Below, piece after piece: positions 4,040-46,396 of a stretch of 64,000 bases of DNA. Within the stretch, counting starts at the first letter, position 1. Each line of letters begins with the position of its first letter. The notes under the pieces are model-generated. The model worked only from the letters and a program-made list of their open reading frames with translations, did no database searches and was not told the DNA's origin. The position numbers and the translations under genes were made by a program. The DNA is from a virus (Duplodnaviria > Caudoviricetes): positions 1-64,000 of IMG/VR virus record IMGVR_UViG_3300031260_000038. One strand, written 5' to 3'.

Positions 4040-4059
4040 GACAGGAGAGCTAACAGACT

Positions 4060-6503: not shown

Positions 6504-6504
6504 A

Positions 6505-6533: not shown

Positions 6534-6572
6534 GTAATTAATAAAAATAGCTGAAGATAAGGAGAATAACAT

Positions 6573-8315: not shown

Positions 8316-8316
8316 A

Positions 8317-10358: not shown

Positions 10359-10512
10359 AAACCACGGTTAAAACCGTAGAATGATAGCCTAAAAAACAGC
10401 AGATACCGTAGGGCATACGGGAATATACGCTTGTGGAGAATTTGTAAGACCTACATAGTAGGCAACGTTCGTTGAAGCAAGAATCCACGGATTTATCCGT
10501 GTGGAGTGTCAA
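10359..10512 (+). mobile_element. non-autonomous IS200/IS605 mini-element (left-end hairpin plus omegaRNA right end, no ORF)
   Basis: Left hairpin ACGGTT-aa-AACCGT (10364-10377). The right part is near-identical to the right end of the TnpB element at 17852-17973 and ends GAGTGTCAA. Confidence 0.85.
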
Positions 10513-10539
10513 GGAAAGATACAAATAAGGAGATAATAA

Positions 10540-11163
10540 ATGCTAAAAACAATTATTACTATTTCAGGTCTTGCAAGAGCAGGGAAAGATACTTTTGCAG
10601 AACTTCTAAAGGAAGAATTTGTTTGTATGGGGCTAAAGTCGCTTCAAATTAATAATGGAGACTGGCTTAAAACTATTGCAAAAAGACTATATGGAGAGTA
10701 TAGCGAGCAGGATAAAGAAAATTATCGTAAAAACCTACAAGAACTAGGTACAGATATTGTAAGAGAAGTAAAAGAAGATTACTGGATAGAAACAACAATT
10801 AATGCGTTTAAGGTATTGACAAACGAGATAGATATTGGTATAATTGCAGATGCAAGATTTAAGAATGAAATTGTCGGTCTTAATAAATATTTTGATAATA
10901 TAGACGATGTTCAATTTTTCTCTATATATGTTAGAAGTAATAGACCATCATGCTTGTCTGAAGAAGCAAAGAAGCATAAAAGTGAACAATTGCTAGAAGA
11001 AATGTCGTTAGGAGAATTTAGTTTTTGTATAAATAATTTTTATGAAATAGATGAATTGAGGAAGGCGGCTAACTATGTGGCTAAATATATAGCTAAAGTT
11101 TGTTTTGATTATGATAATGAAGTGTCAGATGCTGATTGTGAGAATTACAGATGGAACGGATAG
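10540..11163 (+). CDS. deoxynucleoside monophosphate kinase
   Basis: ISGLARAGKDT P-loop, R..LQ.LGTD.VR, IADARFKNE, H.SE. Confidence 0.8.
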   Translation: MLKTIITISGLARAGKDTFAELLKEEFVCMGLKSLQINNGDWLKTIAKRLYGEYSEQDKENYRKNLQELGTDIVREVKEDYWIETTINAFKVLTNEIDIGIIADARFKNEIVGLNKYFDNIDDVQFFSIYVRSNRPSCLSEEAKKHKSEQLLEEMSLGEFSFCINNFYEIDELRKAANYVAKYIAKVCFDYDNEVSDADCENYRWNG

Positions 11164-18833: not shown

Positions 18834-19124
18834 ATGGATATTGGAGAAGCAGTAACAGCTATGAGATGTGGCTATAAAATAGCAAGAAAGGGTTGGAATA
18901 GCAAAGACCAATGGATTGCTCTAAATCCCAGTTCTGTAATAACTGTTAGTGAAGGCAGACCTTTGGCAAAAAATATAGCAGTAGGAACAAAAGTAAAATT
19001 TCAAGAATATGTTATTATGAAAACTGTTCAGAACACTATTGTTCCGTGGCTATGCAGTCAAACAGACTTATTAGCAAATGATTGGATTGTGGTAGGAGAA
19101 GGAGCGGAAGAAATTGACAATTGA
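18834..19124 (+). CDS. DUF2829 / Tad2-like Thoeris anti-defence protein
   Basis: GEA...G.KIARKGWN...Y..MKT....VPWL.SQTD.LA.DW family pattern. Confidence 0.8.
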   Translation: MDIGEAVTAMRCGYKIARKGWNSKDQWIALNPSSVITVSEGRPLAKNIAVGTKVKFQEYVIMKTVQNTIVPWLCSQTDLLANDWIVVGEGAEEIDN

Positions 19125-19903
19125 ACAATGGCTAGGGGAAAATAACAAAATAGGAATTGATATTTGGAAACAAAAATATCAACAAAACAATGAAAGTTTT
19201 GAAGAGTGGCTTGACAGGATAAGTAATGGAAATAAAGAAATTAGACAGCTAATAAAAGACAAAAAATTTCTTTTTGGTGGCAGAATATTGTCTAATCGTG
19301 GTATGCAAAATCAAGGTAAAAAGGTAACTTATAGCAACTGTTTCTTTTTAGGAGAAGTTGAAGATACTCTTGAAGATATTTTTGATATAGCAGGGAAAAT
19401 GGCAAGAACATATTCTATGGGTGGTGGCTGTGGAATAAATTTAGGAAAATTAAGACCAAATGGTAGTGAAGTTAATAATAATGCCAAATATTCTACTGGT
19501 GTAATACCATTTATGGATATGTATAGTAAAATTACTGAAACTATTGGTCAATCAAATCGTCGGGGTGCACTTATGATTACATTGCCTGTAGACCACCCTG
19601 ATATAGAAGAATTTATATCTTGCAAGGCAAATTTGGATAAAGTTTTAAAAGCAAATATTTCAGTTTTTGTAACTGATGAATTTATGAAAGCAGTAGAAAA
19701 TGACGAAAATTTTATTTTAAAATTCTTGGTAGAGCAAACAGGAGAAAAAATAGAAAAAACTATTAGAGCAAAAGAATTGTTTTATGAAATTGCTTATCAA
19801 GCTTGGGATAATGCAGAACCAGGCATTCTTTATAAAGGAGCAATAGATAAATATAATTTAATGAGTAATGTGCCAGAATATAAAATTGGTGGCACTAATC
19901 CGT
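19114..19903 (+). CDS. nrdJ: class II (B12-dependent) ribonucleotide reductase, exon 1
   Basis: FLFGGRIL, TYSNCF, GGGCG, RRGALM, EPG, ends GTNP plus the first base of the Cys codon. Confidence 0.9.
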
Positions 19904-20156
19904 AAACTAAAATGCGGATGTAAAAGTGAGTGAATTGCTGGAAACCCCTTAGAGCCTTAGATACCAAAGTGTAAAAATTCTAAGGATTGGGCAATCAGCA
20001 GCCAAGCTATCAGAGATAGAAGGTTCAACGACTACTGGAGTTTAGCGATAAACTTAATAACCAGATACAGCGCTCACCTACCGACCATCAATGATTGGGA
20101 GATGATATAGTCTAGACCACAACGAGAAATCGGCTTGGGAAACCAAGTGTGGTAGG
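19904..20156 (+). ncRNA. group I intron (253 nt, no homing endonuclease)
   Basis: P AATTGCTGGAAAC, Q AATCAGCAG, R GTTCAACGACTA, S ATGATATAGTCT; P1 exon AUCCGU pairs with IGS GCGGAU with a U-G wobble at the splice site; terminal G at 20156; splicing restores TNPCGEIPL. Confidence 0.93.
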
Positions 20157-21664
20157 GTGGTGAAATTCCGCTTACAAAAAACTCAGCCTGTTTGCTTGGA
20201 AGTATAAATTTATCTGAATATGTAAAAAACCCATTTACAAAAGATGCTTATTTTGATTTTGCAACACTTAAAAAAGATGTTTTTTATTATGTAAAAGGGC
20301 TTAATGAATGTTTACAAGAAAACATTGAATTTATGCCACTAAAAGAACAAGAAGAAGCGGTAAGAAAATATAGAGCAATAGGTCTTGGCTATTTTGGCTC
20401 TGGTGACATGTTCATAAAAATGGGGCTAAGATACGGCTCAAAAGAGTCTATAGACCTTGTTGATATGATTGGTTATGAAGTAGCGAAAGAAGCTGTTATA
20501 TCAAGTAGTAAACTTGTTAATGAGTTCCCTATGCCTGATATTATTAAAGATAATGCTGAAAAAATATTTTCAAGTAAGTTTTATAAGGCTCATTTTAATG
20601 AAGGAGAAAAGTATTTACCTATAAACACTTCACTATTAACAAGTGCTCCTACAGGAACATTATCCACAATGTTTAATGTTAGTGGTGGAATAGAGCCAAT
20701 ATTTTCATTAAAAATGTGGCGTAAAACAGAATCACTAAATAATGGCAAAGAAACAAGCTATGAAATAGATATACCTGTTATAGAAGGATGGAAAATGGCT
20801 AATAACACAACAGTTTTGCCAGAATGGATTGAAAGGTCTACAGCACTTACTCTTAATATAGAAGAACGAATAAACATTCAATCTGCATGGCAAAAACATA
20901 TTGATAATGCCATATCTTCAACTGTAAACCTTGCTGAAGAAACAAGCGTTGAAGACGTTATGAATTTATATATGTCGGCATGGAAACAAGGTCTTAAAGG
21001 AATAACAGTATTTAGAACAGGGTGTAAACGTGGCGCTATATTAACAACTAAAAAAAAGGAAAGCACAATAACAGAAGAAGATGTTTTTGAAGAAGCATTG
21101 GCATGGGGAGATACTCTTGACACAAGTGATGATTTAATTGGTCTTAAAAGAAAAATAATGTCTGGTTGTGGTTCGCTACATATTTTAGCATATTTTGATT
21201 ATGAAGGAAGACTTATGGAAATATTTTTAGATAAAGGTTCTACAGGTGGCTGTTTTAGTTATAGCAATGGATTGTCGAGAATGATAAGTATTGCCGCTAG
21301 GTCTGGTGTAGCTTTCGATAAAATAATTGACCAATTAAATTCTACATTACCTTGCCCTAGCTATGTAGGAAGAACTATAGCAAAAGGAGATACAAGTAGG
21401 GGTAAAAACTGTCCTAATGCTATCGCAAATGCTTTAATAGAAATGAAGCAAGAAGTGAATACTATACTTATGCTTGATGAAGGCGGTGTCAAAGAAGAGA
21501 TAAAAAATGTAAAAAATAAAGATGATTTGCCACTGTTGACAGAAGACGAAATATTAGATGCTAATATGTGTCCTATTTGTTACAAACAAGGACATGAAGA
21601 AAAACTTAACGCTAATTCTGGTTGCTTTTCATGTTTGAAATGTGGCTATAGTAAATGTGGATAA
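20157..21664 (+). CDS. nrdJ: class II ribonucleotide reductase, exon 2 (with C-terminal TSCPD/zinc-ribbon region)
   Basis: CGEIPL...ACLLGSINL, IGLG, APTGTLS, SGGIEP, ISSTVNL, LKGITVFR; spliced product 765 aa. Confidence 0.9.
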
Positions 21665-26128: not shown

Positions 26129-27109
26129 TCACGATATGTGATATTTAAAATGAGCCTCTTTTGCTCTGTGAGTTGAACTTGATATATATACTCTAGTTGT
26201 ATCTGCTGACCTATGTCCTAGGGCATCTTGTATATCTGAAAGCTCCATGCCAGCTTCGTGTGATAGCGTTGCAAATGTGTGTCTTAATACGTGCGGTGTT
26301 AGTTTTTTAGAAATATTTGTTTTAATACTTATGTTTTCCAAGATTTTTTGTATAGCCCTGTTAGACAAATTGCCATGTGGTTTTTTAAGAGAAACAAAAA
26401 GATGCTCTGAGTCTACATCACGCTGACTGAGGTATGTTTGCAAATAATACAAACATTTTTGTGACAAAAAGGTTATTCTTTCTTTGTCGCCTTTTCCTAT
26501 AACGGTTAGCGTTCCTTGGTCTAGGTTCAGACTAGACAATTTAGCGCCCGCTATTTCAGACAGTCTAGCACCAGTTGAATACATTACTTCTATTAGCGCC
26601 CTGTCTCTTATGTTTTCACAAGCATTTCTAATTTTTTCTAAATCTATTATATTTAATGCTTTTGGAAGTCTGACAGGCTCTTTAATTCTTGAAAATCCAA
26701 CCCATATGTTTTCTTTAACGTAGCCTTTGGTCAGCGCCCAGCCGTAGAATGTTCTAAGCACAGTGACGGTGTTGTTCTTAGAGGAATTTTTAATAGATAG
26801 CTGTCTAATGTATTCCATTGCGTCATTGGTTGATATTTCAGAAATATTGCTAAAAGAACTAAGAAATTTATTGATTAATATTTTTCTATCTTTTACTGTT
26901 AGTGTTGAATAGCCCGCATCTAACATATGTTGACAATACCCCTGAATGATGTCTTCTTTATTAGCTTCCACTATTTCTGAAAACACTTCTTTAACACTAT
27001 ATTTTTGCAATAATCTTTGAGCCACCATTCTTAGCAAGTTGTGGTCTGCCGCCGTGTCTAACATTCTAACTGATTCTACCAATTCGTTTATTAGTTTTTC
27101 TTTGGACAT
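26129..27109 (-). CDS. XerD-like tyrosine recombinase
   Basis: RDRALIEVMYSTGARLSE, GKGDK, HVLRH, LGH, TRVY. Confidence 0.93.
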   Translation of the reverse strand: MSKEKLINELVESVRMLDTAADHNLLRMVAQRLLQKYSVKEVFSEIVEANKEDIIQGYCQHMLDAGYSTLTVKDRKILINKFLSSFSNISEISTNDAMEYIRQLSIKNSSKNNTVTVLRTFYGWALTKGYVKENIWVGFSRIKEPVRLPKALNIIDLEKIRNACENIRDRALIEVMYSTGARLSEIAGAKLSSLNLDQGTLTVIGKGDKERITFLSQKCLYYLQTYLSQRDVDSEHLFVSLKKPHGNLSNRAIQKILENISIKTNISKKLTPHVLRHTFATLSHEAGMELSDIQDALGHRSADTTRVYISSSTHRAKEAHFKYHIS

Positions 27110-27183: not shown

Positions 27184-27303
27184 CTATTGTGTAATAATTT
27201 CAACTTTTTCGCTTTCGGTTATTCTTCCGATTTCCACGAGGTTATTTAGATAAGCTTCGTCTATTTTTCCCATTTGGAACTGTAATTTCAAAAACCTTAT
27301 CAT
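27184..27303 (-). CDS. XkdX-like small tail-associated protein (39 aa, not in ORF track)
   Basis: MIRFLKLQFQMGKIDEAYL...GRITESEKVEII; TAATG coupling; GRIT.E motif. Confidence 0.6.
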   Translation of the reverse strand: MIRFLKLQFQMGKIDEAYLNNLVEIGRITESEKVEIITQ

Positions 27304-27572
27304 TAAAATCCACCCCCTAAAACATCCACCATCAGCATTTCCAAGGCTTCAAGGCGTTCTTCTGCCGTCGGTTCTTTTTGCCAGTATTTATCAAAATTTT
27401 CTTCTAATTCTGACAACGTAGCGGTTGTCTTAAAAGCCAGTTCATCGTATTCATAAAATGTCTGACCTTCTTCATTCTTGTATTCACGTTCGTTTTTCCG
27501 TAAATACACATCAGCATACTTTCCGATTGGGAAATAAGATATTTTAGGTTGTTTGGTAGTGTATTCTGCCAT
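27303..27572 (-). CDS. tail-fibre assembly/chaperone-like protein (89 aa) after DGR1 RT
   Basis: RBS AAGGAGG then MAEYTT...; C-terminal PTAEERLEALE coiled-coil motif typical of XkdW-like proteins. Confidence 0.55.
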   Translation of the reverse strand: MAEYTTKQPKISYFPIGKYADVYLRKNEREYKNEEGQTFYEYDELAFKTTATLSELEENFDKYWQKEPTAEERLEALEMLMVDVLGGGF

Positions 27573-28716
27573 TGTTTTCCTCCTTTTGGTATTGACTGAT
27601 ATAATTTTTACAAATATTAACAGCTTCAACTATTTTAAGTTTTCTTCTAATAAACCACGAGTTTGTGTGTTTATACCAACTATAAGCAGATATAATTTTC
27701 CGTGCGATATTTATATTAATTTTTCTTTTCCAGAATTTAACAAAAACACGTCTTGTTTTTAAAAATATTTTAGTTCTAATCGTTGTAGAGTTCTTTCTAA
27801 AAACAAATCCCATCATGTCTATCGGCTCATTGTTTGAAAGCTTGTTCGTTTTCCAGAAATCCTTAATATCTAACAGCAATTCTTCCTTAAGGAATTTCTT
27901 TAACATTAGAAAGGCTCTTTTTACAAATTTCTTGTTTTTACCAGTCAAGATAAAGTCGTCCATATAGAATAAAACGTGTGTTATCAACCTCTTGCGAACA
28001 ACCCCTCTTTTAGTTCTTCTGACAGTGAATAATTTTTCGCTTGCAAAATGATAGGCATAAGACAAATAATAATTACACAAGTATTGAGATAAATATGAAC
28101 CAATTGAAAGACCGCCGTTAAACATTGATAATAATAATTTGAACAACCATATAAGCGTGTTGTTTTTAATATCTCTTTCCAAAAAATATATTAATTTGTC
28201 TTGTGGTATTGATGGGAAACACTTTACGACATCTCCTTTTATAAAATATTTTACTTCATTTCTATCAATCCACCTGCGTATAAATCTTTTGCCATAACAT
28301 TGTCCTTTATTGGGTAAAGATGCGCATTGAAATACTCCGATTTTTGCCATTAACATCTCTTTAGCACCCTCTATTGCGATATAATCACATATTTGGTGAA
28401 GTGGCGACTGAACCCCTATAGTTCTTTCTTTTTTGCACATATAATCGTACTTGGTGAAATATTGTATAGGTCTTAATTTCAGCGTCTTGTTTCTGATTTT
28501 GCCTGATAAATAATTAGCAATATTTAACACAATGCAATGTATTCTCGTGCGGTCGTTGTTCACAAAACCTGTTATCTCTAAATAACTATAATTTGAAAAT
28601 TTGCAAAACAATCTTCGCACATCTTTTCTGTTCCATTTTCTTTTTAAATATTTATATATGCAACTAACAATAAAATCCATGTTGCATATATCTATGTTTT
28701 TACAGTATCTTTTCAT
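27544..28716 (-). CDS. DGR reverse transcriptase 1
   Basis: KGDVVKCFPSI, DGR-type GLSIGSYLSQ, FYMDD, IDMMGF; adjacent to a TR/VR pair. Confidence 0.95.
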   Translation of the reverse strand: MKRYCKNIDICNMDFIVSCIYKYLKRKWNRKDVRRLFCKFSNYSYLEITGFVNNDRTRIHCIVLNIANYLSGKIRNKTLKLRPIQYFTKYDYMCKKERTIGVQSPLHQICDYIAIEGAKEMLMAKIGVFQCASLPNKGQCYGKRFIRRWIDRNEVKYFIKGDVVKCFPSIPQDKLIYFLERDIKNNTLIWLFKLLLSMFNGGLSIGSYLSQYLCNYYLSYAYHFASEKLFTVRRTKRGVVRKRLITHVLFYMDDFILTGKNKKFVKRAFLMLKKFLKEELLLDIKDFWKTNKLSNNEPIDMMGFVFRKNSTTIRTKIFLKTRRVFVKFWKRKININIARKIISAYSWYKHTNSWFIRRKLKIVEAVNICKNYISQYQKEENNGRIHYQTT

Positions 28717-28847
28717 TATGACCTTTCTAATAATGTCTCAATGGATTTCGCTAAACTACTAACCACTGCTGTAACGATTAATTTTACTTAGTTAAGTGAG
28801 CCGTGCCCGCTTAAAGCGGGGAGACTTGGCACATTGTTTTTTTATTA

Positions 28848-28960
28848 GATTGCCGGGGCAAGATATTCCAGTTCGAGTTCGTCAACGAGTTGTTGCCATT
28901 CAAGTAACGTAATCCACACTGAGCGTCATTGTTCAGATTACCGAAAGACTGCCATACCTT
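28848..28960 (-). repeat. DGR1 template repeat (TR1)
   Basis: 113-nt ungapped match to 29051-29163; all 25 mismatches are at TR adenines (coding strand); rich in AAY codons. Confidence 0.97.
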
Positions 28961-28982
28961 GCTGTGCCAAGAATCCTCTATA

Positions 28983-28998
28983 AGGGGTTGTCACCCCT
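28983..28998. promoter_or_regulatory. DGR1 post-IMH hairpin/cruciform
   Basis: AGGGGT-tgtc-ACCCCT just downstream of the target-gene stop. Confidence 0.7.
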
Positions 28999-29013
28999 CA
29001 ATGCTTCGCATTT

Positions 29014-30753
29014 TCACCCCAAACTACGCCTGCGGCTTCGCCCAGTTGCTGAAAGCCGGGGCAAGACATACCAGCCCGAGCCCGCCAACGAGTCGCTGCC
29101 AACCAAGCAACGCAATCCACACCGAGCGCCAACGCTCAGAAGACCGAAAGACCGCCACACCCTTGTACCAGTAACCGGAGAATTTGTATAGATACCATCG
29201 CCAAATCCAGTAGAAGAACCCGCTAATGACTCAACAGGCACAATTACAGATGGATTATTTTCGTCGATTGCTATTTTGCTAATATACTGCCAAGCGTTAT
29301 TTGTTTGTGTCAATTGATAACCAACTAAATCATAATTAGAAGTTATTGAAGTTGCGTAATTATGACAATCGTAACAAGCGTAAACTTCAATTTTGTACGT
29401 TCCGGTATTGTCGTTGTTGATTATCAAGTTTTGAATGACTTCATAACCACCAACCATCACTTCTATGCCGTTGATGATAAAGGGTTCTTTGCCTGATAAA
29501 TTGTTATAAGGCGAACCATCTTGACCGAGCACGTCATCACAGCCGCCGCTGTTCCAAGGCATTGTTGATATTTTAGTTGACAAGGTGGTGTCGAAAACAG
29601 CAGAATCCACATAGACAGCGCTGTTGCCATCGCCTAAATCTTCAATAGATGTTATTTTAACTCTATTTGCCAAGTCGTGAACGCTTGCGTTTGCTCTATC
29701 TGTCGTTGTAGCGTTGCCAACCGAAACAGTCGAACCAACAAGCAAGTAAGCGCCTTCTGCATTTGACACAACAACACGATTAACCCCGGTTTCCGCAACC
29801 CTATTGGAATACTGGGCATAGTAAGCCTGACAACCTTTCATCACATCGTCTGATATTGTTGTTGCGTATTTAAGCCACATCATCAACTGCACGTAAAAAT
29901 CATCGTGAGAAGTTTTGCCGCTATACTGAGCGCCTTTGGCGGCAAACGCTGTAATTTGTCCATTGTGGCTCATATTCACATATTCAGGATAAACACCGCT
30001 GATGGACGCAAGATTGTTACTTTCGTGTACGTTTCTTCCTGCGACATACTTAGCGAACAGCAAATAAGGTCTGATTGTTCCGTCGGGCTTTTCTGCCGGT
30101 TGTAGAATTTTGTAACCCTCGTATGGAAAATCAGTATACGAAACTTCCCAATAAGTGTCCGTAAATGTTACTTTAAAATACCCCGCCATCGCCATGATGT
30201 AGACATCGCCGTTCGTGCCGTCACGCCTGAAATTAGAATCGCCTTTTATTGCTGTAACGTGGTAATCGTCGTTTGCATCTACATGAGCGTTGACTTCAAT
30301 CGACCGAAACAGACCGATGTTTTCGTAGTCGTTTCTGCCTTTGATGGTGTTTGTTGACGGTTCACAGACAAGACCCATGCTATCATCAAGTTTTGTTCCG
30401 AGTGGTGACTGTGACACAGAGAACAGATTGAACCTTACAGTGTAGATTTTCCCTGTGCGTTGTGCATTCCAGAATCCACCTAATCCGATATACTCAGTAC
30501 CATTGAAATAAACATCGTTCACGTTTGACGCAATATCCGCCAATTGTGTATCTAGTTCATCTATTGCATCTTGTGTATTAGTAGCCGTAAGTCCACTTGT
30601 AGTATTATTATATTCTAAATCTATTGCTGACGCTTCTGCATAGCTACCTGTGCCATCACCTTTTAGAACGCCGTTTACGTCTCTCATTGTTTGCAACATC
30701 TCGCCATATTTAGTAGATGCTATCGGCTGACCATTATACATTAAAACAGCCAT
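29014..30753 (-). CDS. DGR1 target: tail/receptor-binding protein with C-terminal variable (CLec-type) domain
   Basis: VR1 lies in the last ~50 codons; PYLLFAKY and GIEVMVGGYE motifs; RBS AAGGAG. Confidence 0.85.
   Translation of the reverse strand: MAVLMYNGQPIASTKYGEMLQTMRDVNGVLKGDGTGSYAEASAIDLEYNNTTSGLTATNTQDAIDELDTQLADIASNVNDVYFNGTEYIGLGGFWNAQRTGKIYTVRFNLFSVSQSPLGTKLDDSMGLVCEPSTNTIKGRNDYENIGLFRSIEVNAHVDANDDYHVTAIKGDSNFRRDGTNGDVYIMAMAGYFKVTFTDTYWEVSYTDFPYEGYKILQPAEKPDGTIRPYLLFAKYVAGRNVHESNNLASISGVYPEYVNMSHNGQITAFAAKGAQYSGKTSHDDFYVQLMMWLKYATTISDDVMKGCQAYYAQYSNRVAETGVNRVVVSNAEGAYLLVGSTVSVGNATTTDRANASVHDLANRVKITSIEDLGDGNSAVYVDSAVFDTTLSTKISTMPWNSGGCDDVLGQDGSPYNNLSGKEPFIINGIEVMVGGYEVIQNLIINNDNTGTYKIEVYACYDCHNYATSITSNYDLVGYQLTQTNNAWQYISKIAIDENNPSVIVPVESLAGSSTGFGDGIYTNSPVTGTRVWRSFGLLSVGARCGLRCLVGSDSLAGSGWYVLPRLSATGRSRRRSLG
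29051..29163 (-). repeat. DGR1 variable repeat (VR1)
   Basis: 25 of 31 TR adenines substituted, no non-A differences. Confidence 0.97.
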
Positions 30754-30777
30754 TTAATCACTCTCCTTAAATTATAC

Positions 30778-30806
30778 TTGACAAATCCCTTATTTTGTGC
30801 TATACT
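30778..30806 (+). promoter_or_regulatory. sigmaA promoter for the recombinase
   Basis: TTGACA-17-TATACT with TG extension, then RBS AAGGAG. Confidence 0.8.
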
Positions 30807-30827
30807 AATTAAAAAAGGAGATTTGTT

Positions 30828-31688
30828 ATGATTGAAAATTTTTGTACTTACCTTTATTCTGTAAAAAACAGGTCACATAGAACGATAACTGAATATCGTT
30901 ATGACCTATTGCGTTTTGAAAAATTTATTGGAAAAGACCTAAAAGATGTAGATAGCGGCGACATTATTTCTTATCTAAAAAAGATGTCAGACGAAAAGAA
31001 GTCTAGTGCCTGTAGAGCTAGAAAACTAAGCTCTATTAAATCGTTCTACCGCTATCTACAAATGTTTGGTCATGTTACGGTCAGCCCCGCCGTAAACATT
31101 GGTACGCCCAAAATTGAAAAGAGATTGCCTAAATATTTATCCCTAGTCGAAGCTGTTAGGCTTGTTGATGTAGCCAAGCAAAACAAAGTTGAGTTTTACA
31201 GACTAAGAGATACCTGTATGATACAAATGTTTCTTAACTGTGGTTTGCGTCTATCTGAACTTGTTGAACTGCAACTGACAAGAATTAGCGGTGATAAAAT
31301 AGAAGTTATTGGAAAAGGCAATAAACAAAGATTTATTTATATGAACAATGCTTGTCAAAAAGCTCTTTCAGAGTGGCTTAATTACCGACAAGAATATTCC
31401 TGTGACTATGTTTTTAGCACGAAAAGAGATAACAAAATATCCAAAACAGCTGTTCAGTCAGTTATAAAGAATTATTTCAGAAAAGCTGGTCTTGACACAA
31501 CTAAATACCATGTTCACAGCCTACGACATACGTCTGCCACACTAATGTATCAGTATGGCAAAACAGACGTGCGTGTGCTACAACAATTTTTAGGACACTC
31601 TACGATAGAATCAACCATGATATATACTCACGTTAATGACAACCAATTAAGGTCTGCTGTTATTAACAATCCACTGGCTAACCTATAG
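30828..31688 (+). CDS. XerC-like tyrosine recombinase (opposite strand to the tail module)
   Basis: NCGLRLSEL, GKGNK, HSLRH, LGHS, TMIY. Confidence 0.93.
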   Translation: MIENFCTYLYSVKNRSHRTITEYRYDLLRFEKFIGKDLKDVDSGDIISYLKKMSDEKKSSACRARKLSSIKSFYRYLQMFGHVTVSPAVNIGTPKIEKRLPKYLSLVEAVRLVDVAKQNKVEFYRLRDTCMIQMFLNCGLRLSELVELQLTRISGDKIEVIGKGNKQRFIYMNNACQKALSEWLNYRQEYSCDYVFSTKRDNKISKTAVQSVIKNYFRKAGLDTTKYHVHSLRHTSATLMYQYGKTDVRVLQQFLGHSTIESTMIYTHVNDNQLRSAVINNPLANL

Positions 31689-31706
31689 GCGAAATCTTAA
31701 TTTGGT

Positions 31707-31808
31707 TCAATCTGAGTAATTAATTCCCGTGATAGACTTGTATTCTTCTTTTGTAATACGCTTCATTTTGACTAAAAATTTATACAACCTTATTTCAGCA
31801 TCGCTCAC
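31707..31808 (-). CDS. XkdX-like small protein (33 aa, not in ORF track)
   Basis: GTG start overlapping the upstream TGA; ...KRITKEEYKSITGINY motif. Confidence 0.7.
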   Translation of the reverse strand: MSDAEIRLYKFLVKMKRITKEEYKSITGINYSD

Positions 31809-32113
31809 TTAGCACCCCCTCCTGACAACAAAACTATTTCTGTTAAATCTGCCAACAATTGGTTTAACTGTTCATTCTCAATTTCTTCTTGCGTTTTTTG
31901 CCTCAATACTATCCATGATTTTCCGTCACGAATAATATTGGACAGCAGTTTCATGTCTTGATATGTTTCTATTTTTTCTCCGTCTGATATTTCTACCAAG
32001 GACAAGTTATTTTCAAAAATTGAATCTTCAATAACTTGTCTGGCAATATAATTGTTTCCGTTTAATTCAAGGTTTTCTATAATTGTTCCGTCTGCCAATT
32101 TTATGTGGTACAT
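31805..32113 (-). CDS. tail-fibre assembly/chaperone-like protein after DGR2 RT
   Basis: MYHIKLADGT..ENLELNGNNYI... with C-terminal LLADL coiled coil; same position as in DGR1. Confidence 0.6.
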   Translation of the reverse strand: MYHIKLADGTIIENLELNGNNYIARQVIEDSIFENNLSLVEISDGEKIETYQDMKLLSNIIRDGKSWIVLRQKTQEEIENEQLNQLLADLTEIVLLSGGGAK

Positions 32114-33288
32114 TGATTGACCCCCTTTAATTCGTTATATAAATTATTCATATTTGTTCGTTGCTGTCTGCTCATTAGTTTGTAGTGATTGTTGAACCAC
32201 GATGTAAACAAACACTCAAAATCTTTTTTGTCTAAAACAGGAGCAAGTTTTTTCATTTTTCTCCGCATTGCTGTTAGTCTTTTGGGATTTATTTTCTTTA
32301 TAATTCGACCTGTTTCTGTTAGCGAATATTGTATTTGCAAAAATCTCCAACAACTTGATAACTTGCAAATTCTTGTCTTTTTAGTGTTTATTGTGATTCC
32401 TATTTTTGTAGATTCCTCGACTATTTCTTTTAGCAGTGATTCTAAATAATTTTTATCTTGGTGAATTACATAACTGTCGTCCATGTACCTGCCGTATAGC
32501 TTTACGCCCTTAACAATTTTTATATAGTTGTCTAAGTCTTTAGGATAAGCTATGCCAGCAACCTGAGCTACTTGGTCGCCTATATTAAGATGCTTGTCCA
32601 TTATTTTGCCGCCAACACATAACGCTTTATCTATATTTTGATATTCTAAAGAGTTAAATAATTCTTGCATGCATACGGAATATTGTTCGTCACTCATATA
32701 GGAAACATCTACCCGAGACTTTTCAATAGCTTTTTCAAGAACCCATAAAGCGTCATTTTTAATTCCTATTTCTTCAAATATTTTTAGAAAATAATCGTGT
32801 CTTATATTGTCAAAGTATTTGCTGAAATCTATTAACAATATATATCCATCGTTGCTACCGTGCTTAGAGTAAAATCGTCTTAAATGTCTTTCAAACCTAT
32901 CCCTTGTAAAGCCAATACCCTTACCTTCTAAACTTGCTCCGTTATCATGTATAAGGTATTTTTTTATTACAGGAATCAACTCTTCTGTGCATAGACAACT
33001 TTTAACCACCCTGTCTCTTATGTGCTCTCCTGTTATTAATCTTGTTTTCCCTCTTTCTTTTAATATAAATTCTGAACCATCAGACAATTCAAACGTTCGA
33101 TTCTTTATAGATTTATAAGTTTCTGATATTTCTGGCAAAAACCTCATTTCATATTTTTGAACAGAGGCTTTCCAATCACTATTCTTCTTGGTCTTTTTAT
33201 AAGCTTTATAAAGATTATTAGAATTAAATGTTTCATGCTCACAGCTACAATTCTCGTAAGAAGTAGCGTCATGTTTAGTATTTACCAT
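32101..33288 (-). CDS. DGR reverse transcriptase 2
   Basis: RDRVV, GKG, LIDFSKYFDNI, IGDQVAQ, GRYMDD, FLQ. Confidence 0.95.
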   Translation of the reverse strand: MVNTKHDATSYENCSCEHETFNSNNLYKAYKKTKKNSDWKASVQKYEMRFLPEISETYKSIKNRTFELSDGSEFILKERGKTRLITGEHIRDRVVKSCLCTEELIPVIKKYLIHDNGASLEGKGIGFTRDRFERHLRRFYSKHGSNDGYILLIDFSKYFDNIRHDYFLKIFEEIGIKNDALWVLEKAIEKSRVDVSYMSDEQYSVCMQELFNSLEYQNIDKALCVGGKIMDKHLNIGDQVAQVAGIAYPKDLDNYIKIVKGVKLYGRYMDDSYVIHQDKNYLESLLKEIVEESTKIGITINTKKTRICKLSSCWRFLQIQYSLTETGRIIKKINPKRLTAMRRKMKKLAPVLDKKDFECLFTSWFNNHYKLMSRQQRTNMNNLYNELKGVNQCTT

Positions 33289-33349
33289 ACGGAAGGATAT
33301 TTTCTCCTTTCTTTAATGCAAATCGGTCAAATGCCTTTTTAATTGCAAA

Positions 33350-33440
33350 ATTGAAATCGGGACGCGCGCCAAGAGAGTAAGAAGCGTTGTTGTTGTTGGC
33401 ATTACCGTTGTTGTTGACATTGGCAAAGTTCGTCGATGAT
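33350..33440 (-). repeat. DGR2 template repeat (TR2)
   Basis: 91-nt ungapped match to 34061-34151; 16 mismatches at TR adenines plus 4 at non-A positions; translates NFANVNNNGNANNNNAS. Confidence 0.93.
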
Positions 33441-33460
33441 ATTAGAAAATACCCCATGGA

Positions 33461-33994
33461 TTAGTTGTTAAAATTTTTAGCAAACTTGTTGTCAGACTTT
33501 CTCCATCCTTTTATCAAAGATATCTCTTTTTCTATTCCATCTGAAAAACGTAAGTACTTATCAATATCAACTGGTAGCGTTTCAATTGCATATTGAAGCT
33601 CTTGTAGTAATCTGTTGCATTGACCTATCGCCCTATCCTGATGTATTCGCCTTTCAATCAATTCTTCTTTATAGTGAGGATAAATGCTGTTGGCTACAAA
33701 AATGTGTTCCTGAACACTTCTAAGACAGTCCATAACTGAATCTCTCTGGTCTATGATAAACCATTCTTCAAACGAGTTTGTCTTTTCCTTCCTATCATCG
33801 TAATGCTTCTTTTCCGCATCGTTTAATTCATGATATGGTCGTTTCCCAAATGTTTTTGCTAAATATTCTTCTGACTTCTTACTACTGTAGCCAAAATCTC
33901 TCAAAAGCAAGTCTGTTATCTCTTTTCTGACTTTATAAAAATGATGAAACACCTCAAATTGAGATTCTTTTCTTTTTCGTTTTACGACTGACAC
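33461..33994 (-). CDS. avd: DGR accessory variability determinant (Avd-like four-helix protein)
   Basis: Position between VR2 and TR2; MSVVKRKRKESQFE start, ANSIYP...RR..Q..AI, EI.LIKGWRKSD. Confidence 0.85.
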   Translation of the reverse strand: MSVVKRKRKESQFEVFHHFYKVRKEITDLLLRDFGYSSKKSEEYLAKTFGKRPYHELNDAEKKHYDDRKEKTNSFEEWFIIDQRDSVMDCLRSVQEHIFVANSIYPHYKEELIERRIHQDRAIGQCNRLLQELQYAIETLPVDIDKYLRFSDGIEKEISLIKGWRKSDNKFAKNFNN

Positions 33995-34031
33995 TTAATT
34001 TCTCCTTTTGTAAAATGTTTTAATTATCTAC

Positions 34032-34046
34032 GCCCCATAAAGGGGC
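34032..34046. promoter_or_regulatory. DGR2 post-IMH hairpin
   Basis: GCCCC-ataaa-GGGGC starting a few bases after the target-gene stop. Confidence 0.6.
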
Positions 34047-34051
34047 TTGAT

Positions 34052-35590
34052 TTAAGAAATACAGAAAGCGGGACGCACGCCATAAGAGAGAGAAGCGCCG
34101 TAGTTGCCGGCAAGACCGTCGTTGGTGACATAGGCAAAGGTCGCCGATGATGAAACATCTCTCAACCAATAGGATTGCCTCGTATTCACGGATTGTGGGT
34201 TTGATGCAAATAGTGGGAATTGCGATTTATCCACATATACATTATTCGCCAAGCTAGTCCCTTGCGTTGCGTTGCCATAATGCTTAGTGCCATATACATT
34301 AGCTTCAGTCATCAGTTCTACCGTTGAGTCATACCACGATCCACCACTTGTATACCCACTGGTTACCGCATTATGTAAATAGTTTCTATGACTTACCACA
34401 TGACCGCTAAAGGCGTTATTTATGGTGGTTTTTGCACTATTTAACCCAGATACATACATTTTGCTGCCAACATAAGCACCTGTTGTAATGTTAGTGTCAT
34501 TCATCACATGATTATACAGTGCTGTGTCTGGCACTATTACAGCGTGATTAGCGGTAAGCGCTGTATCGCCTGTATTGTGGTAATAATTGAAACAAGCTAT
34601 TCTGTAATTAATTCCACCGATAGTCCAATAGTCGCCAACATATAGGTCGTCAAATGTGCCGCTTGAAATGGCATTGTATTGCTCTGTTGTGACAGCCGAA
34701 CCTAAATATTTACCCCTGAATATAGAGTTGTGAAACCCTGCGCCACTTGAAATTGGTAGAACCAAATTAAGATTAGTGTCTAATTTATCAATTGAACTGG
34801 TAACAGTTTCACCATCTGTTACATAATTATTTTCTGTATAAAGCCTGTCACCAACATTGTCATTTGTGTCTTTTAATTCCATATCTAACTTGTCTATGCT
34901 TGCAGTTAAAGCTTCACCATCTGTTACATAATTTTCTTCAGTATAAAGCTGAGAACCTTTATCTTCACCTATTTCTTGTAAAGCATCTTCAACAGTGTTG
35001 CCGCTATAATATCCGCCGCCATCTGTTATACTTATTGTGTTAGCGTTGTTTATTAAAAGGTCTCCTTCTACATCTGTTATAATATATACTTGGTCTGATT
35101 CAATTTTACCCTGTGCATCAAGAGCATCATATTCAGCCTGAGTTAAATATATGGCTGTAATTTTATACCAACTGCTATCTGGTGGCCCTGCTTCACCGCC
35201 ACGCATTACATCAAATTTAATTTCACCGCTACTTATTCTTTCGTCTGCATCAGTAATTGTTATTTTTATTGTTACTTTACCTATAAAAGCAAACACAGCA
35301 GGATTTATTTGTAAAACTATTTCTCCATCAACTATATTTACATCATTACCAAAACTTTGGGTATATACAGGTTCACATTGATTCTCAATATAATAATGAA
35401 CATCAATTGTTTCTGTTGTAAGTGTTAATTTAGCGCCATTTTTTTGTACTTCAATATAAAAAATATTGCCATATAAATCACCACGACTAAAAAAAGGAAC
35501 AACATATTTATATGTTTGATTATTATATGGAGCTATAATATGTTTACCTGTATATAAATCAAGCCAAACTTTGTATTCTTTTTTAGCCAT
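34052..35590 (-). CDS. DGR2 target: BppU-like baseplate/fibre protein with C-terminal variable domain
   Basis: N-terminal BppU-like segment, TQAEYDAL fibre motif, IFRGKYLG...GDYW domain, ends YWLRD...GVRPAF (VR2). Confidence 0.85.
   Translation of the reverse strand: MAKKEYKVWLDLYTGKHIIAPYNNQTYKYVVPFFSRGDLYGNIFYIEVQKNGAKLTLTTETIDVHYYIENQCEPVYTQSFGNDVNIVDGEIVLQINPAVFAFIGKVTIKITITDADERISSGEIKFDVMRGGEAGPPDSSWYKITAIYLTQAEYDALDAQGKIESDQVYIITDVEGDLLINNANTISITDGGGYYSGNTVEDALQEIGEDKGSQLYTEENYVTDGEALTASIDKLDMELKDTNDNVGDRLYTENNYVTDGETVTSSIDKLDTNLNLVLPISSGAGFHNSIFRGKYLGSAVTTEQYNAISSGTFDDLYVGDYWTIGGINYRIACFNYYHNTGDTALTANHAVIVPDTALYNHVMNDTNITTGAYVGSKMYVSGLNSAKTTINNAFSGHVVSHRNYLHNAVTSGYTSGGSWYDSTVELMTEANVYGTKHYGNATQGTSLANNVYVDKSQFPLFASNPQSVNTRQSYWLRDVSSSATFAYVTNDGLAGNYGASLSYGVRPAFCIS
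34061..34151 (-). repeat. DGR2 variable repeat (VR2)
   Basis: Aligns to TR2; encodes the last ~30 residues of the target. Confidence 0.93.
34781..34948 (-). repeat. internal 105-nt (35-aa) period duplication in the DGR2 target
   Basis: LYTEENYVTDGEALTASIDKLD / LYTENNYVTDGETVTSSIDKLD. Confidence 0.8.
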
Positions 35591-41311: not shown

Positions 41312-44300
41312 TTATCTAAACCCTTGACTTGCAAGAGTGTTTCTTATTTGTGAAACAAGTATATTGTTATTTCTATCAACATCATAAGGCGTATTGTTGT
41401 TTATATTATTGATAATTTTTACTAACTCACTATTAAAAGAATTTCCACCATTTTCTACACGCTCAAACTGAGCAATAAGTTTAGGAAAATACTTATAAAT
41501 CATATCATCAAAAGTTTTTGTTTGATGTTCTGTTAGTATTCTCTCTTTGTCATGAACCATTGCTAATCCTTCTCCCTTTGTCATTGAGCCACCAGATAAT
41601 ACAGGAACACCACCACTCTTAAATGTAACTAACTTAGGCCATGTTTGAGGGCCTACTTTACCATCAATGCCAAGACCATATTTAGATTGAAAGGCTCTAA
41701 CAGCCGCTTCAGTAGCAGGACCATATTTTCCATCAATACCAGCTGAGCCAACACTGTAACCTTTTGCTACAAGATTTCTCTGTATTCTTTTTACCGTTTC
41801 ACCCGCTGAACCACGAACAAATACTGTGTTTGGATATGGTATTGCACTTGTTGTTGGTTTAGGGGCGGGAGCAGGAGTGGGCTTAGGAGCAGAAGCAACA
41901 ATAGAAGGAGAAGAAGGTTTATAGCTTATATTTGGAACTGAAACACCAGATTTAACAGTCTTAATGCTATCTAAAGCTTTATTAACTTCTGCTGTTATTT
42001 CTTTAGCCATGCTTCCACCAAGAAGTTGTCCTATCCCGCTAAATGTTGGTTCGTATTGTTTCAATAAATTTACAATAGCGTTCATATTATTTGATAATAA
42101 TAGCTTATTGGCTTCATTATAAAGATTAGCTTCACTTAAAAGTTTTTCATAATATTCTTCAGCTTTAGCTATTTTTTCATCATATGTTTGATTACTTGCT
42201 TCAGCAGATTCTTTAACCTTTGCTATTTCTTTATCAATCGCCGCTATCTGAAGGTTTTTTCTAAGCTTATTAACTTCTGCTTGTAATTCAGCTGTTCTCT
42301 TTTTACCTAAAACAGAATCATCTAGCCTTGACATTTCAAGCTTTTTCTCAAGAGTTTTAAGATTAGCTTGGTCTTGCTGTTCTGTACTTTGTAGTGCCGC
42401 TTTTTCAGCTTCAAGTTGTGCTATTCTTTCATCAAAAGCCTTTTGTCTTGCTGTTCGCTGTGCTTCAATAGCTTTAATTGCCGCTGACTTTTCTTCTTCA
42501 TATTTTGCCCTAATAGAAGAAACAAGTTTAGCTTGCATAGATTCAACAGCACTAACAGCATCATCATAAGCTTTTTGTACTTCTGCACTATAATCTTTTT
42601 GCATCGAAAGTAAATTTTCATAATGTGAAACTGTTAATTTTTCAACATCTGTCCATGTATTTTCTGCTTTAGATTTAATAGCATTATAAGTACCCTTAAT
42701 AGAATTAATTTCTTTATTAATTCTGGCTAAAGCCACTTTAGCTGAAATAGCACCTTGTTCATAAGCATTACTAATAGCTATTCTAATAAGCTCAAATCTG
42801 GCTTCAGTATTGTCTAATAACCTTTTTTGCGCTTCATCTTGCGCTCTTTCGGCTTCTGATGCTGAAGATGAAGCTGAACTACTTGTGTCTTTAGCTATTT
42901 TTTCAAAATTAGGAGAAGTTGTTCCATATGTTTTTGTAGAGCCAAGTTGTGCTTGTAATCCTGTTATTTTAGCTATATCTGCATTGTAGCTTCTTACATT
43001 AGATTCAAGATTTCTCTTTGCTATAGTAGCTTCTCTTACCGCTGTTTTACGGCTACCTGTTCTTGACAAAGTGCTTGCATAAGTTTCAGAATATATTATT
43101 GAACTAGCGGCAAATGATTCAGCATTTGAAAGAGCTTGCATAGCTTCTATTTGTTTTTTGTATGCATTTAAAGCGCCATTAGATGTATCTATTATTGCTT
43201 TCAACCTATCAGAAGAAGCTGTTGCTGTAGTTTTAGCAAGATTCAATTCTTTATTTATTAAAACATCTATCGCACTTGCATTAATGTTTAAAGTATTAGT
43301 GTTGGCATCGTAATATTGCAATAATTGTGGGTACTTATTCAAAAGCTCAGATATTTGCTTAGAATTTAGTTGTTGATTATTCGCAACTGTATAATAAGCA
43401 TCTGCAAGCATTAAAGAATTAGACGAAGCATTATCAAATGTTTCTGATATTTTCCTTGCTTCTTCTTCAGCCGCCGCTAAATCTTCTGTTAAATCTTCTG
43501 TTGCAGATGATGCATGAGCTGTAGCTCTATTTAACCCTTCCATTCTATTTTCCATAGCAGAAACCCTACGAATTTCAGCTTCTGAAATAGGTTCTGTAAT
43601 ACCAGAAAGAGCCTTTAATCTTATATTTTCTTCTATAATTTTATTATGTTTTTCTATTTCTTCAGATAAAAGTTTTTGAGCACTTTCTAAATCTTTAAGT
43701 TCTTTTTTAGAAAGATGATTAGTTTCAAGATTTTTTTCTAATTCTTTATTTATATCTTCTAAAATTAGCTTAAAATCGTTGCCCCTGTCTCTTGCTTCTG
43801 GTGTATTAATCCCATAAAGAATATTAGATGCTCTTGCCGCTTTTTTTACTATGTCATTAGAAAAAGTTTTTACAGGTCCTAAATAATTTTCATAATCACT
43901 AAAACTACTAAAAAATGCTTCTGCCATTTGAACAGCTGTTTGATTAGTTAAAACTAATTGCCCCGCTTGTTCTATACTCAATGTTCTTAAAGCTTCTATA
44001 TTATCTTCTATGGCACTTGTATTGTTTATAAAAGCACCTGTAGTAGTATCAATAAATAAAGGCAATTTTTCTTGTTCTGTTCTAACAGCGTTTATAGCAT
44101 CTGCTGATTCTTCATATTTTGTTTTTAATAAATTAGCAACTTCTATAAGTCTGTTGTCTTCATCAATAGTTCTTCCTTTGGTTTTAGATAATTTATCATA
44201 TTCATTTATTAAAGAATTTATTTCAACCTGAGAATCCCTAAAAGTATTTGCAGATTCTATAGCAGTTTCAGCCAATCTTTCAAGTTCGGCATTGCCTTCT

Positions 44301-46396
44301 TTGGATTTTTGTATAAATTGTGTTATAGCAAAAACCAATACTGTAGCTATTATTCCTGCTAAACTAGAAAATCCTGCCCCTGTATTAGCCGCCGCCGCTT
44401 TACCATTTTTTAAACTTTCAATAAGACCATTATGATTTTTCATTCCTTTTGCGGTTGCAGATGCGAAAGCTCCTACAGATTTTATAACTTCTTTTAGTGG
44501 CGTAATTAAAGCAACAAACCCCTTATGTATCAAAGATGTCTTATTAGATAATGCCGCTAAAGTTAATGTCAAGGCAACGTTAGCTAAACCTAATTTATTA
44601 ATAAAGTCAATAAAACCTGTACCAAAACTAATAAAAGACTTCATAGCATCTGTTTCAATAGTGTCTTGCCACATTTTTGTAACAGCATTATTAAACTCAT
44701 TAACTTTTGCTGTAATTGACTCTGTATAAATAGCGTTTTCTTCTAGTGCTGAACCTGTAGAATTAACTGCTTCTCCAAGCTGTTTTTCTACCATTGTCCA
44801 GTTATCCATTAATCCCAAGAAAACGTCCATTTGTCTTTTATTAGCAAGGTCTGTAGCTAATTGTTGTTTTTGTATAGAGTCTAATGTTCCCCATTTCCCT
44901 GCAAGCTCAGTAAGAACGTCCATAGTATCTCTTAGCTCGCCATTCATGGTAATACTAATGCCCGCTATGTTTTTAAGAGCCAGTCCTGCTTTAGCAAAAG
45001 AATCTTCATCAACTTCTGCTTCTGCATCTTTTATCTGTCTAATATTAGCAACAATAGTTCTAACAGCTCTACCAATTTCAGAACCTTCGCGCTGAGTTGC
45101 CGCTGTCGCTGTACCAATAATAGCAATAAATTGGTCAATAGAAAATCCTGCTGTATCAGCAACATTAGCCGACATTTTAATAGCATCTGACATTTTACCA
45201 ATAGTAGTTGCATTATTATTAGATACATTATTCATTGCATCTATAGTATGTGCAAGCTTTTCATAATTACCGTTTAGCTTAAATCCTGCATTAGCCGCAA
45301 TAAGCGTCTCATTAGCTGTGTCAGCAGTAACATCACCAACGTTTTGTAATAACAAGGATAACTCTGTTAATCCTGTTAATTGAGTATCTCTAAATCCTGC
45401 CTTTGCAAACATTTCATAAGCAGATAAATAATCCTGAACAGTCCTACCAAAAGCAGAAACTTCTTCTGAAGCTCGTCTAGCAAGTGCTGTAGCTGAATCA
45501 GCTGTCATATCAGTAACTTTTCTGATATTTACAAGAGCATCATCAATTTCTCTAAGAACTTCTAACCCTTGTTTAAACTCTTGCCATACCTTATAAACAA
45601 TAAATCTGGTAGAAATAAATTGAGATAAAACTTTAACAAAATCACTAGCAGAACTTTTACTTCTATTAAATTCTGTTGTAAGCCGCTTCATCGCCGCTTC
45701 ATTTTCCTGTGTTACAGCAACTGCCCTACGCTGTTCATCTGTTAAATCAGAAAAATGCTTGCCACTACCAATAACATTCATAGCCGCAGTATAGTCTTGA
45801 GAATATTCAGCATTAATTCTTTTCAGATTTTCAATAGCATTTTCATAGGACATTGTTTTGTTTCTGTATTGTTCTTCTATACTTTTTGCAACTTTACTAG
45901 CAGATGTTTTTTCGTTAGCCATAAGCTTGTTATTATATTGAGTGCTCATAGTAAGCAATCTCTTATAATAATTTTCCCAAGCTAAATAATTTTTATCTGT
46001 AGGTTGACCACCCTGCTCTATAATACGGTACATTTCCTTTTGTGCCGCCAAAGCTTCACGCTGAGCTTTATTAATGGCTTTAGTTATGTTTTCTTGGTCT
46101 CCAAAAGCAAATTGTATTCTTATAGCGTTCTCTCTTGACTTTATTATATTATTAAGGCTTTTAACTTTTTTTACTACATCTTTTTCGATATTTTTATCAT
46201 CAATATTTATTTTTATAGTGGCGGGCTTTTTAGCTAATCCGCTATCCACCTTAGCTACTATTTCATTTATATCTTTATTAAGAGTAGTTTTACTAATAGT
46301 AGGCTTAATAGTAACATTTTTTAATTTTTCTGATAATTGTTCTTTTATCTTATTAACATCAATAATAGCATCTACTAAAATTTGGAAATCGCTCAA
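41312..46396 (-). CDS. tape measure protein with C-terminal peptidoglycan-binding domain
   Basis: 1694 aa, helical, EIDDALVNIRKV/N.V.NN.AT TMP core, C-terminal GIDGKYGPATE. Confidence 0.92.
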   Translation of the reverse strand: MSDFQILVDAIIDVNKIKEQLSEKLKNVTIKPTISKTTLNKDINEIVAKVDSGLAKKPATIKINIDDKNIEKDVVKKVKSLNNIIKSRENAIRIQFAFGDQENITKAINKAQREALAAQKEMYRIIEQGGQPTDKNYLAWENYYKRLLTMSTQYNNKLMANEKTSASKVAKSIEEQYRNKTMSYENAIENLKRINAEYSQDYTAAMNVIGSGKHFSDLTDEQRRAVAVTQENEAAMKRLTTEFNRSKSSASDFVKVLSQFISTRFIVYKVWQEFKQGLEVLREIDDALVNIRKVTDMTADSATALARRASEEVSAFGRTVQDYLSAYEMFAKAGFRDTQLTGLTELSLLLQNVGDVTADTANETLIAANAGFKLNGNYEKLAHTIDAMNNVSNNNATTIGKMSDAIKMSANVADTAGFSIDQFIAIIGTATAATQREGSEIGRAVRTIVANIRQIKDAEAEVDEDSFAKAGLALKNIAGISITMNGELRDTMDVLTELAGKWGTLDSIQKQQLATDLANKRQMDVFLGLMDNWTMVEKQLGEAVNSTGSALEENAIYTESITAKVNEFNNAVTKMWQDTIETDAMKSFISFGTGFIDFINKLGLANVALTLTLAALSNKTSLIHKGFVALITPLKEVIKSVGAFASATAKGMKNHNGLIESLKNGKAAAANTGAGFSSLAGIIATVLVFAITQFIQKSKEGNAELERLAETAIESANTFRDSQVEINSLINEYDKLSKTKGRTIDEDNRLIEVANLLKTKYEESADAINAVRTEQEKLPLFIDTTTGAFINNTSAIEDNIEALRTLSIEQAGQLVLTNQTAVQMAEAFFSSFSDYENYLGPVKTFSNDIVKKAARASNILYGINTPEARDRGNDFKLILEDINKELEKNLETNHLSKKELKDLESAQKLLSEEIEKHNKIIEENIRLKALSGITEPISEAEIRRVSAMENRMEGLNRATAHASSATEDLTEDLAAAEEEARKISETFDNASSNSLMLADAYYTVANNQQLNSKQISELLNKYPQLLQYYDANTNTLNINASAIDVLINKELNLAKTTATASSDRLKAIIDTSNGALNAYKKQIEAMQALSNAESFAASSIIYSETYASTLSRTGSRKTAVREATIAKRNLESNVRSYNADIAKITGLQAQLGSTKTYGTTSPNFEKIAKDTSSSASSSASEAERAQDEAQKRLLDNTEARFELIRIAISNAYEQGAISAKVALARINKEINSIKGTYNAIKSKAENTWTDVEKLTVSHYENLLSMQKDYSAEVQKAYDDAVSAVESMQAKLVSSIRAKYEEEKSAAIKAIEAQRTARQKAFDERIAQLEAEKAALQSTEQQDQANLKTLEKKLEMSRLDDSVLGKKRTAELQAEVNKLRKNLQIAAIDKEIAKVKESAEASNQTYDEKIAKAEEYYEKLLSEANLYNEANKLLLSNNMNAIVNLLKQYEPTFSGIGQLLGGSMAKEITAEVNKALDSIKTVKSGVSVPNISYKPSSPSIVASAPKPTPAPAPKPTTSAIPYPNTVFVRGSAGETVKRIQRNLVAKGYSVGSAGIDGKYGPATEAAVRAFQSKYGLGIDGKVGPQTWPKLVTFKSGGVPVLSGGSMTKGEGLAMVHDKERILTEHQTKTFDDMIYKYFPKLIAQFERVENGGNSFNSELVKIINNINNNTPYDVDRNNNILVSQIRNTLASQGFR

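Follow-up and report, generated by a model that had tools for sequence, protein, structure and literature searches.

Diversity-generating retroelements (DGRs) of a curated set have been sorted by gene order into classes such as architecture B (68% of the set) and architecture A (29%), which has no accessory gene (Wu et al., 2018, PMC5758913). The DGR of phage BPP-1, arranged as mtd-avd-template repeat (TR)-brt, is a B1 element whose reverse transcriptase (RT), bRT, requires Avd (PMC5758913), while A1 elements follow a simple target-TR-RT order and include systems with TaqVP-type proteins, TaqVP (PDB 5vf4) being a solved DGR variable protein. Several DGRs per genome have been documented in cellular organisms, for example in ~10% of DGR-bearing complete genomes (PMC5758913), in 25% of Bacteroides isolates (PMC11601372) and elsewhere (PMC4372165), and phage DGRs with one RT and two targets are known from Quimbyvirus (PMC8008677) and from another report (PMC12629997). 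Among the papers that we searched, none describes a phage as having a complete pair of DGRs, which does not prove that there is none. Here we analyse a 64,000-bp window, bases 1-64000 of the linear 79,098-bp IMG/VR virus record IMGVR_UViG_3300031260_000038, which very probably carries two complete DGRs in tandem (DGR1 and DGR2), each acting with its own RT, TR and variable repeat (VR) on C-type-lectin-fold, fibre-like targets. Like the multi-DGR cellular genomes and Quimbyvirus, this phage would diversify more than one locus per genome, but it does so with two full RT/TR sets lying 3-4 kb apart in one phage. Each cassette is an ordinary member of a known DGR architecture and it is the stacking that is uncommon.

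Both elements lie on the minus strand, where the order is target 2, Avd, TR2, RT2 and a 102-aa open reading frame (ORF), then, beyond a plus-strand recombinase gene (recombinase B), target 1, a hairpin, TR1, RT1, a small ORF and recombinase A. By its gene order (target, avd, TR, RT), DGR2 is of architecture B1. In common with the BPP-1 element it has, besides this order, an Avd, a TR rich in AAY codons, a fibre protein of C-type-lectin fold with the VR at its C-terminal end, a VR 3' end that is GC-rich and has a hairpin downstream, and an RT whose top PDB match is bRT (8ub7, E 5.8e-5). Target 2 (34052-35590, 512 aa) joins a BppU_N-like N-terminus (E 1.6e-4 and 21.8 bits, just below the gathering score of 23.1) to a DUF6273/C-type-lectin C-terminus, and VR2 (34064-34151) falls within its last ~35 codons. 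Residues 302-512 were modelled confidently as a C-type-lectin fold, matching 9qa6 (Z 12.4), 4eps (Z 8.0), TvpA 2y3c (Z 5.4) and Mtd 1yu0 (Z 4.0) in a wide search with VIA-align; Foldseek gave no clear match for the model. The N-terminal half was modelled poorly, and the only relatives of this N-terminus were found on a single contig (L100; labels of this form denote the contigs, assemblies and loci compared). A GC hairpin with a 5-bp stem (34032-34046) comes just after the target-2 stop, followed by Avd (33461-33994, 177 aa; phrog_3206 'Avd protein of DGR', E 2e-6), which is kept at the same position across the RT2 clade, TR2 (33353-33440) with 10 AAY codons, and RT2 (32101-33288, 395 aa; Pfam RVT_1, phrog_1423) with the motifs IGDQVAQ and YMDD. 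Unlike the BPP-1 element, DGR2 has AQ and not SQ in RT motif 4, has a conserved 102-aa ORF after the RT (31805-32113; no Pfam match, present after RT2-clade RTs and 36-55% identical in seven diverged cassettes), and forms a cassette that lies between 16-nt inverted repeats, with a tyrosine recombinase directly next to it.

DGR1, judged in the same way, is an Avd-less A1 element (target, hairpin, TR, RT) and resembles the described A1 DGRs with TaqVP-type proteins (5vf4; PMC5758913) in its target-TR-RT order, its lack of an accessory gene and its TaqVP-like target, but differs from them in adjoining a second, unrelated DGR in a phage and in that its TR-RT block corresponds to a precise 1,380-bp indel. 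Target 1 (29014-30753), a fibre-like variable protein of 579 aa matching phrog_17147 and phrog_5302 'tail protein', has VR1 (29052-29163) within its last ~35 codons, and its AlphaFold2 model (predicted local distance difference test score of 85) has TaqVP 5vf4 as best fold match (prob 1.0, E 5e-7). More than 500 homologues occur in Bacillota and phage contigs, many of them fused to BppU_N, collagen or fibre domains, with BppU_N forming the N-terminus of many, and the relative on contig L109 sits directly after Phage_tail_C genes. Between the target-1 stop and TR1 (28849-28960, 9 AAY codons) lies a GC hairpin with a 6-bp stem and a GACA loop (28983-28998). RT1 (27544-28716, 390 aa; Pfam RVT_1, phrog_1423) carries the motifs SIGSYLSQ and YMDD and, again, has BPP-1 bRT 8ub7 as top PDB match (E 1e-8). 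A search with an Avd profile built from ~80 RT2-clade Avds found one Avd in the window, that of DGR2, and none in DGR1 or any RT1-clade locus. The GC-rich VR 3' ends and short hairpins of both cassettes are putative initiation of mutagenic homing (IMH)/hairpin target-recognition elements, and whole-region fold z-scores were unremarkable. Two RT1-clade RT genes elsewhere (L017:2302-3565 and L169:9965-10965) are split into two overlapping frames by apparent frameshifts.

The anatomy agrees with much of the initial annotation of this DNA, which had read from the sequence two distinct YMDD-bearing RTs of 390 and 395 aa, two unrelated TR/VR pairs with a target each, VRs at both target C-termini and GC hairpins downstream of them, and had proposed structure prediction for both targets, which now gives a TaqVP-like target 1 and a C-type-lectin fold for the target-2 C-terminus. 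Its chaperone or XkdX-like genes after the RTs stand only as small conserved ORFs: no member of either family has a Pfam or NCBIfam match, XkdX included, and the ESM Atlas offers only leads below 0.9 (YomQ_N, DUF2977, XkdW/XkdX, Phage_tail_APC). The two small-ORF families are also unlike each other (profile-profile probability 1%). The small acidic ORF after RT1 (27303-27572, 89 aa from the ATG at 27572; no Pfam match) is a partner of the fibre gene and not a DGR component, since it stays directly after the target on contigs L108 and L109, where the TR-RT block is absent, and precedes TR-RT in L013, L016 and L018. Candidate roles as Avd and as CH1 were ruled out for it on the same linkage to the fibre gene, together with the lack of a match to the Avd profile in one case and the length of CH1 proteins (160-169 aa) in the other. 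Missed by the initial annotation were the two tyrosine recombinases, the inverted repeats bounding DGR2, the lack of Avd in DGR1 and the 1,380-bp indel of its TR-RT block.

Adenine-specific mismatches are found in both pairs. TR1 and VR1 differ at 25 positions, every one a template adenine (hypergeometric P = 1.2e-19); this count had been given for a 113-nt frame, which adds two non-adenine mismatches at its edges, and it is exact for 28849-28960. For the second pair 16 mismatches, all at adenine, had been reported, with four others omitted: the window TR2 gives 14 adenine and 4 non-adenine mismatches to VR2. The same DGR2 was found in seven other IMG/VR assemblies. The TR2 of four of these has AAC...AAT...GTG in place of the TAC...CTT...GCG of the window, and against the TR2 of those four the window VR2 has 16/16 mismatches at adenine (P = 2e-10). 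Since VR2 differs only at adenines from the sister template, the four odd mismatches are, on this comparison, private changes of the window TR2 (~33366, 33372, 33373 and 33379), three of them at adenine and one a T>C in the GC-rich 3' element. The three further assemblies read ACC...ATT at the same two codons. TR2 itself thus varies among assemblies (the window; L021-L023), and nearly all of this variation affects adenines in a pair of AAY codons close to the 3' end (AAC>TAC/ACC and AAT>CTT/ATT), a pattern that suggests occasional self-homing or VR-to-TR conversion.

Natural activity was inferred from assemblies and not from reads. VR2 is distinct in all eight assemblies, and where an ungapped VR2 could be compared with its own TR (L019, L020, L021 and L003) every difference is at adenine, with zero elsewhere. 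VR2 length variants occur inside AAC repeats, with one extra codon (+3 nt) in L022 and L023 and a loss of 21 nt in L024, consistent with slippage or template jumping during complementary DNA (cDNA) synthesis or integration. Across assemblies two distinct VR1 sequences were seen, those of the window and of L003, which differ at 14 adenine sites. Moreover, three non-adenine polymorphisms between the TR1 of the window and that of L003 are each mirrored in the cognate VR1, so TR-to-VR transfer went on after these lineages split. Sequence comparison with sister assemblies thus shows that both DGRs have been active.

In the proposed mechanism, each RT would reverse-transcribe the transcript of its own TR and put random bases opposite the adenines, and the cDNA would then replace the VR coding for the exposed face of the C-terminal C-type-lectin-fold domain, which would sit on a BppU-type fibre or receptor-binding protein. 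By family, both targets are fibre or receptor-binding-type proteins of BppU-type families, and a role in receptor recognition is presumed for both. The theoretical repertoire is ~1e16 protein variants for TR1 and ~1e13.6 for TR2. The two RTs have no significant similarity in BLASTP and in a tree of 77 RTs fall into clades split by very long branches (support 100* and 99*); targets 1 and 2 are unrelated, as are TR1 and TR2. The 79-kb record holds a single VR-like copy of each TR and no remote or cross target of either. As no template, target or enzyme similarity is shared, the two DGRs most likely act independently, in line with the initial annotation, and are presumably orthogonal.

Several points weigh against two working, fully independent systems in one phage. 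The whole DGR1 clade does without Avd, so DGR1 biochemistry must differ from that of BPP-1. Given that BPP-1 bRT requires Avd (PMC5758913) and that the sole Avd in the 79-kb record belongs to DGR2, RT1 might borrow Avd2 or another DGR2 component in trans, in which case the systems would not be fully orthogonal. We regard this as improbable, because ~15 RT1-clade loci without a DGR2 cassette have no Avd within 10 kb and their cassettes persist all the same, and because DGRs of architecture A as a class have no accessory gene. RT2 has a serine-to-alanine change in motif 4 (AQ where SQ is usual), and the four private TR2 changes are absent from VR2, which means that the 3' part of VR2 has not been renewed by homing since these changes came about; DGR2 may therefore be idle in the window genome. 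A stronger version, in which only DGR1 is now functional and DGR2 is recently silenced or decaying with a drifting template, would account for these uncopied substitutions but is unlikely: all three genes (Avd, RT2, 102-aa ORF) are intact, with 98-100% identity to copies that show VR turnover, and the four unconverted changes may simply be recent. Furthermore, a single study is the probable source of the sister assemblies, which are therefore not fully independent, the placement of both targets on the virion is deduced from domain families alone, and both target genes come after the lysis genes.

The remaining difficulty is one of assembly, which the initial annotation had itself named as a possible refutation. 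The DGR2 cassette is a ~3-kb near-identical repeat in at least two phages of the same sample series, with ~100% identity between backgrounds, and L024 shows a third flank combination, so the join of the structural genes to the DGR1-adjacent copy of the cassette rests on one contig and on composition. Contigs from different samples break ~120 nt inside the cassette (the end of L100 at window position 34655 and the start of L023 at 34648), as would be expected if two phages with an identical cassette coexist in those samples. These breaks, the shared repeat and its three flank combinations are what a chimera of DGRs from different phages, assembled across the shared cassette, would produce, but such a chimera is highly improbable. 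The junction of the left inverted-repeat arm with recombinase B and DGR1 is present in two diverged versions, that of the window and that of L003, a 7.5-kb contig from another sample which carries both cassettes in the same order (Avd2, TR2, RT2, 102-aa ORF, recombinase B, target 1, TR1, RT1, small ORF, recombinase A). From Avd2 to recombinase A its identity to the window is 72-100%, and at the amino-acid level recombinase B is 78%, target 1 88% and recombinase A 63% identical; these diverged flanks mark a different strain and not the same molecule. Thus, a chimera is excluded for the link between the cassettes. In addition, the link of cassette and recombinase B recurs in L024, the private single-nucleotide polymorphisms of the window cassette are contiguous with its own recombinase-B flank, and the two flanks of the window share one tetranucleotide signature (correlation 0.81-0.85) that is distinct from that of the L019-type phage described below (0.33-0.54). 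A tandem of two complete DGRs in one phage therefore remains the preferred reading.

Each DGR has an adjoining Xer-like tyrosine recombinase. Recombinase A (26129-27109, minus strand; Phage_integrase, E 1.7e-37) is XerA/XerC-like and scores below NCBIfam equivalog cut-offs, and recombinase B (30828-31688, plus strand), between the cassettes, has its stop 5 nt from one end of the DGR2 cassette. This cassette, of 3,082 bp, is bounded by perfect 16-nt inverted repeats, with arm L (AATCTTAATTTGGTTC) at 31693-31708 and arm R at 34759-34774, inside target 2 at codons 273-278 (NLNLV). In five assemblies (L019-L023) DGR2 belongs to another, unrelated phage, a small siphovirus that has genes for holin, amidase, Gp157, ERF and DnaB and has neither integrase nor DGR1. 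Between the window and the L019-type siphovirus the cassette is ~100% identical outside VR and TR; identity falls to unrelated sequence exactly at 31693 and to ~50-60% just past 34780, and these limits of homology coincide with the inverted-repeat arms. By our rough estimate, a repeat of this kind would fall by chance this close (within 10 nt) to a fixed point in an 11-kb stretch with a probability of ~5e-4.

The DGR2 cassette can be compared with the recombinase-driven invertible segments of the Mu G and shufflon type: it has 16-nt inverted repeats and an adjacent recombinase, and the contigs at hand, few in number, showed the cassette in one orientation. The predicted inversion product is a truncated target ending in NLNLVQSE, and the inverted orientation was absent from six IMG/VR junctions and from metagenome contigs; a second metagenome scan matched unrelated DNA alone, which leaves no usable denominator. 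The L019-type phages retain the inverted repeats without the recombinase, and in six diverged RT2-clade cassettes a search for similar repeats gave only a marginal 14-nt pair, in L027, so the inverted repeats are not a feature of the clade as a whole. A tentative and somewhat doubtful proposal is that the C-terminal fibre domain, Avd, TR, RT and small ORF of DGR2 together make up a cassette complete in itself, which the neighbouring Xer-like recombinase moves between phages or inverts.

DGR1 behaves as a presence/absence unit of another kind. Two ENA contigs, L108 and L109, carry relatives of target 1 (96% and 82% nucleotide identity) followed directly by the small ORF, and are without 1,380 bp of the window (27629-29008) comprising the hairpin, TR1, the spacer and most of RT1. 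At the breakpoints (L108:2140-2290 and L109:3080-3250) only a 2-nt TG is shared, and no att-like direct repeats were found around DGR1. In these two contigs the DNA that matches the last ~25 RT1 codons lies between the genes and runs into the 5' end of the small ORF. The L108 VR has 17/22 of its mismatches to TR1 at adenines, and this bias makes L108 an RT-less derivative or a remote target. Modular acquisition is the probable origin of the pair: DGR2 is a bounded cassette common to an unrelated siphovirus, and the hairpin-TR-RT block of DGR1 separates the fibre gene from its small partner in some relatives and is missing from others.

The initial annotation had supposed that such a pair is rare in a single phage. 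In a set of ~165 loci retrieved from around RT1 and RT2 relatives, three lineages have a pair of RT genes no more than 10 kb apart: this one, L049 and L171. L049, an independent 151.7-kb phage contig in IMG/VR, has two full tandem DGRs at 4045-11134, with RTs 24% identical and with 17/20 and 8/14 mismatches at adenine in the two pairs. The contig of L171, which holds two RTs, is too short for repeats to be seen. One of the L049 DGRs is of the RT2 clade with Avd and the other has a long-branch RT of 467 aa. Twin-RT phage loci are thus uncommon, as supposed, and not unique, since the arrangement recurs.

The late operon carries the two DGRs at its distal end. The phage is large, tailed and low in GC (~32% for the window); its record is estimated by CheckV to be 45% complete, and a megablast of the 10-kb region against INPHARED gave no match. 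GC reaches 0.37-0.39 over DGR1 and recombinase B (28000-32000) compared with ~0.32 elsewhere, consistent with a foreign origin of that block. The plus strand from 1 to 25.9 kb codes for a DnaE-type polymerase, a split ribonucleotide reductase, dUTPase, PhoH and TnpB. The late genes run on the minus strand from 64 kb down to 26 kb, with a 1,694-aa tape measure protein, Dit, a 789-aa Tal-like protein, endolysin and holin preceding both DGRs. The ribonucleotide reductase barrel (19114-21664) consists of two ORFs, of 263 aa and 490 aa and ~290 nt apart, a split that an intron, an intein-like interruption or a break could explain. The tape measure protein (41312-46396) has an endolysin-type domain at residues ~1474-1594 that resembles a portion of the free-standing 398-aa endolysin.

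If its two hypermutation systems are orthogonal, the phage could diversify both fibre-like proteins in combination and so search for receptors over ~1e30 nominal combinations. An Avd-dependent-type and an Avd-less DGR in one genome also form a natural system in which to study cross-talk. The sharp bounds of the cassettes suggest a route for the transfer of hypermutation ability between phages, and this cassette-like mobility, above all that of the inverted-repeat-bounded DGR2 beside a recombinase, is the main point of interest. If the proposal for DGR2 is true, it would be a portable, perhaps switchable hypermutation module, which would explain the stacking of several DGRs in phages.

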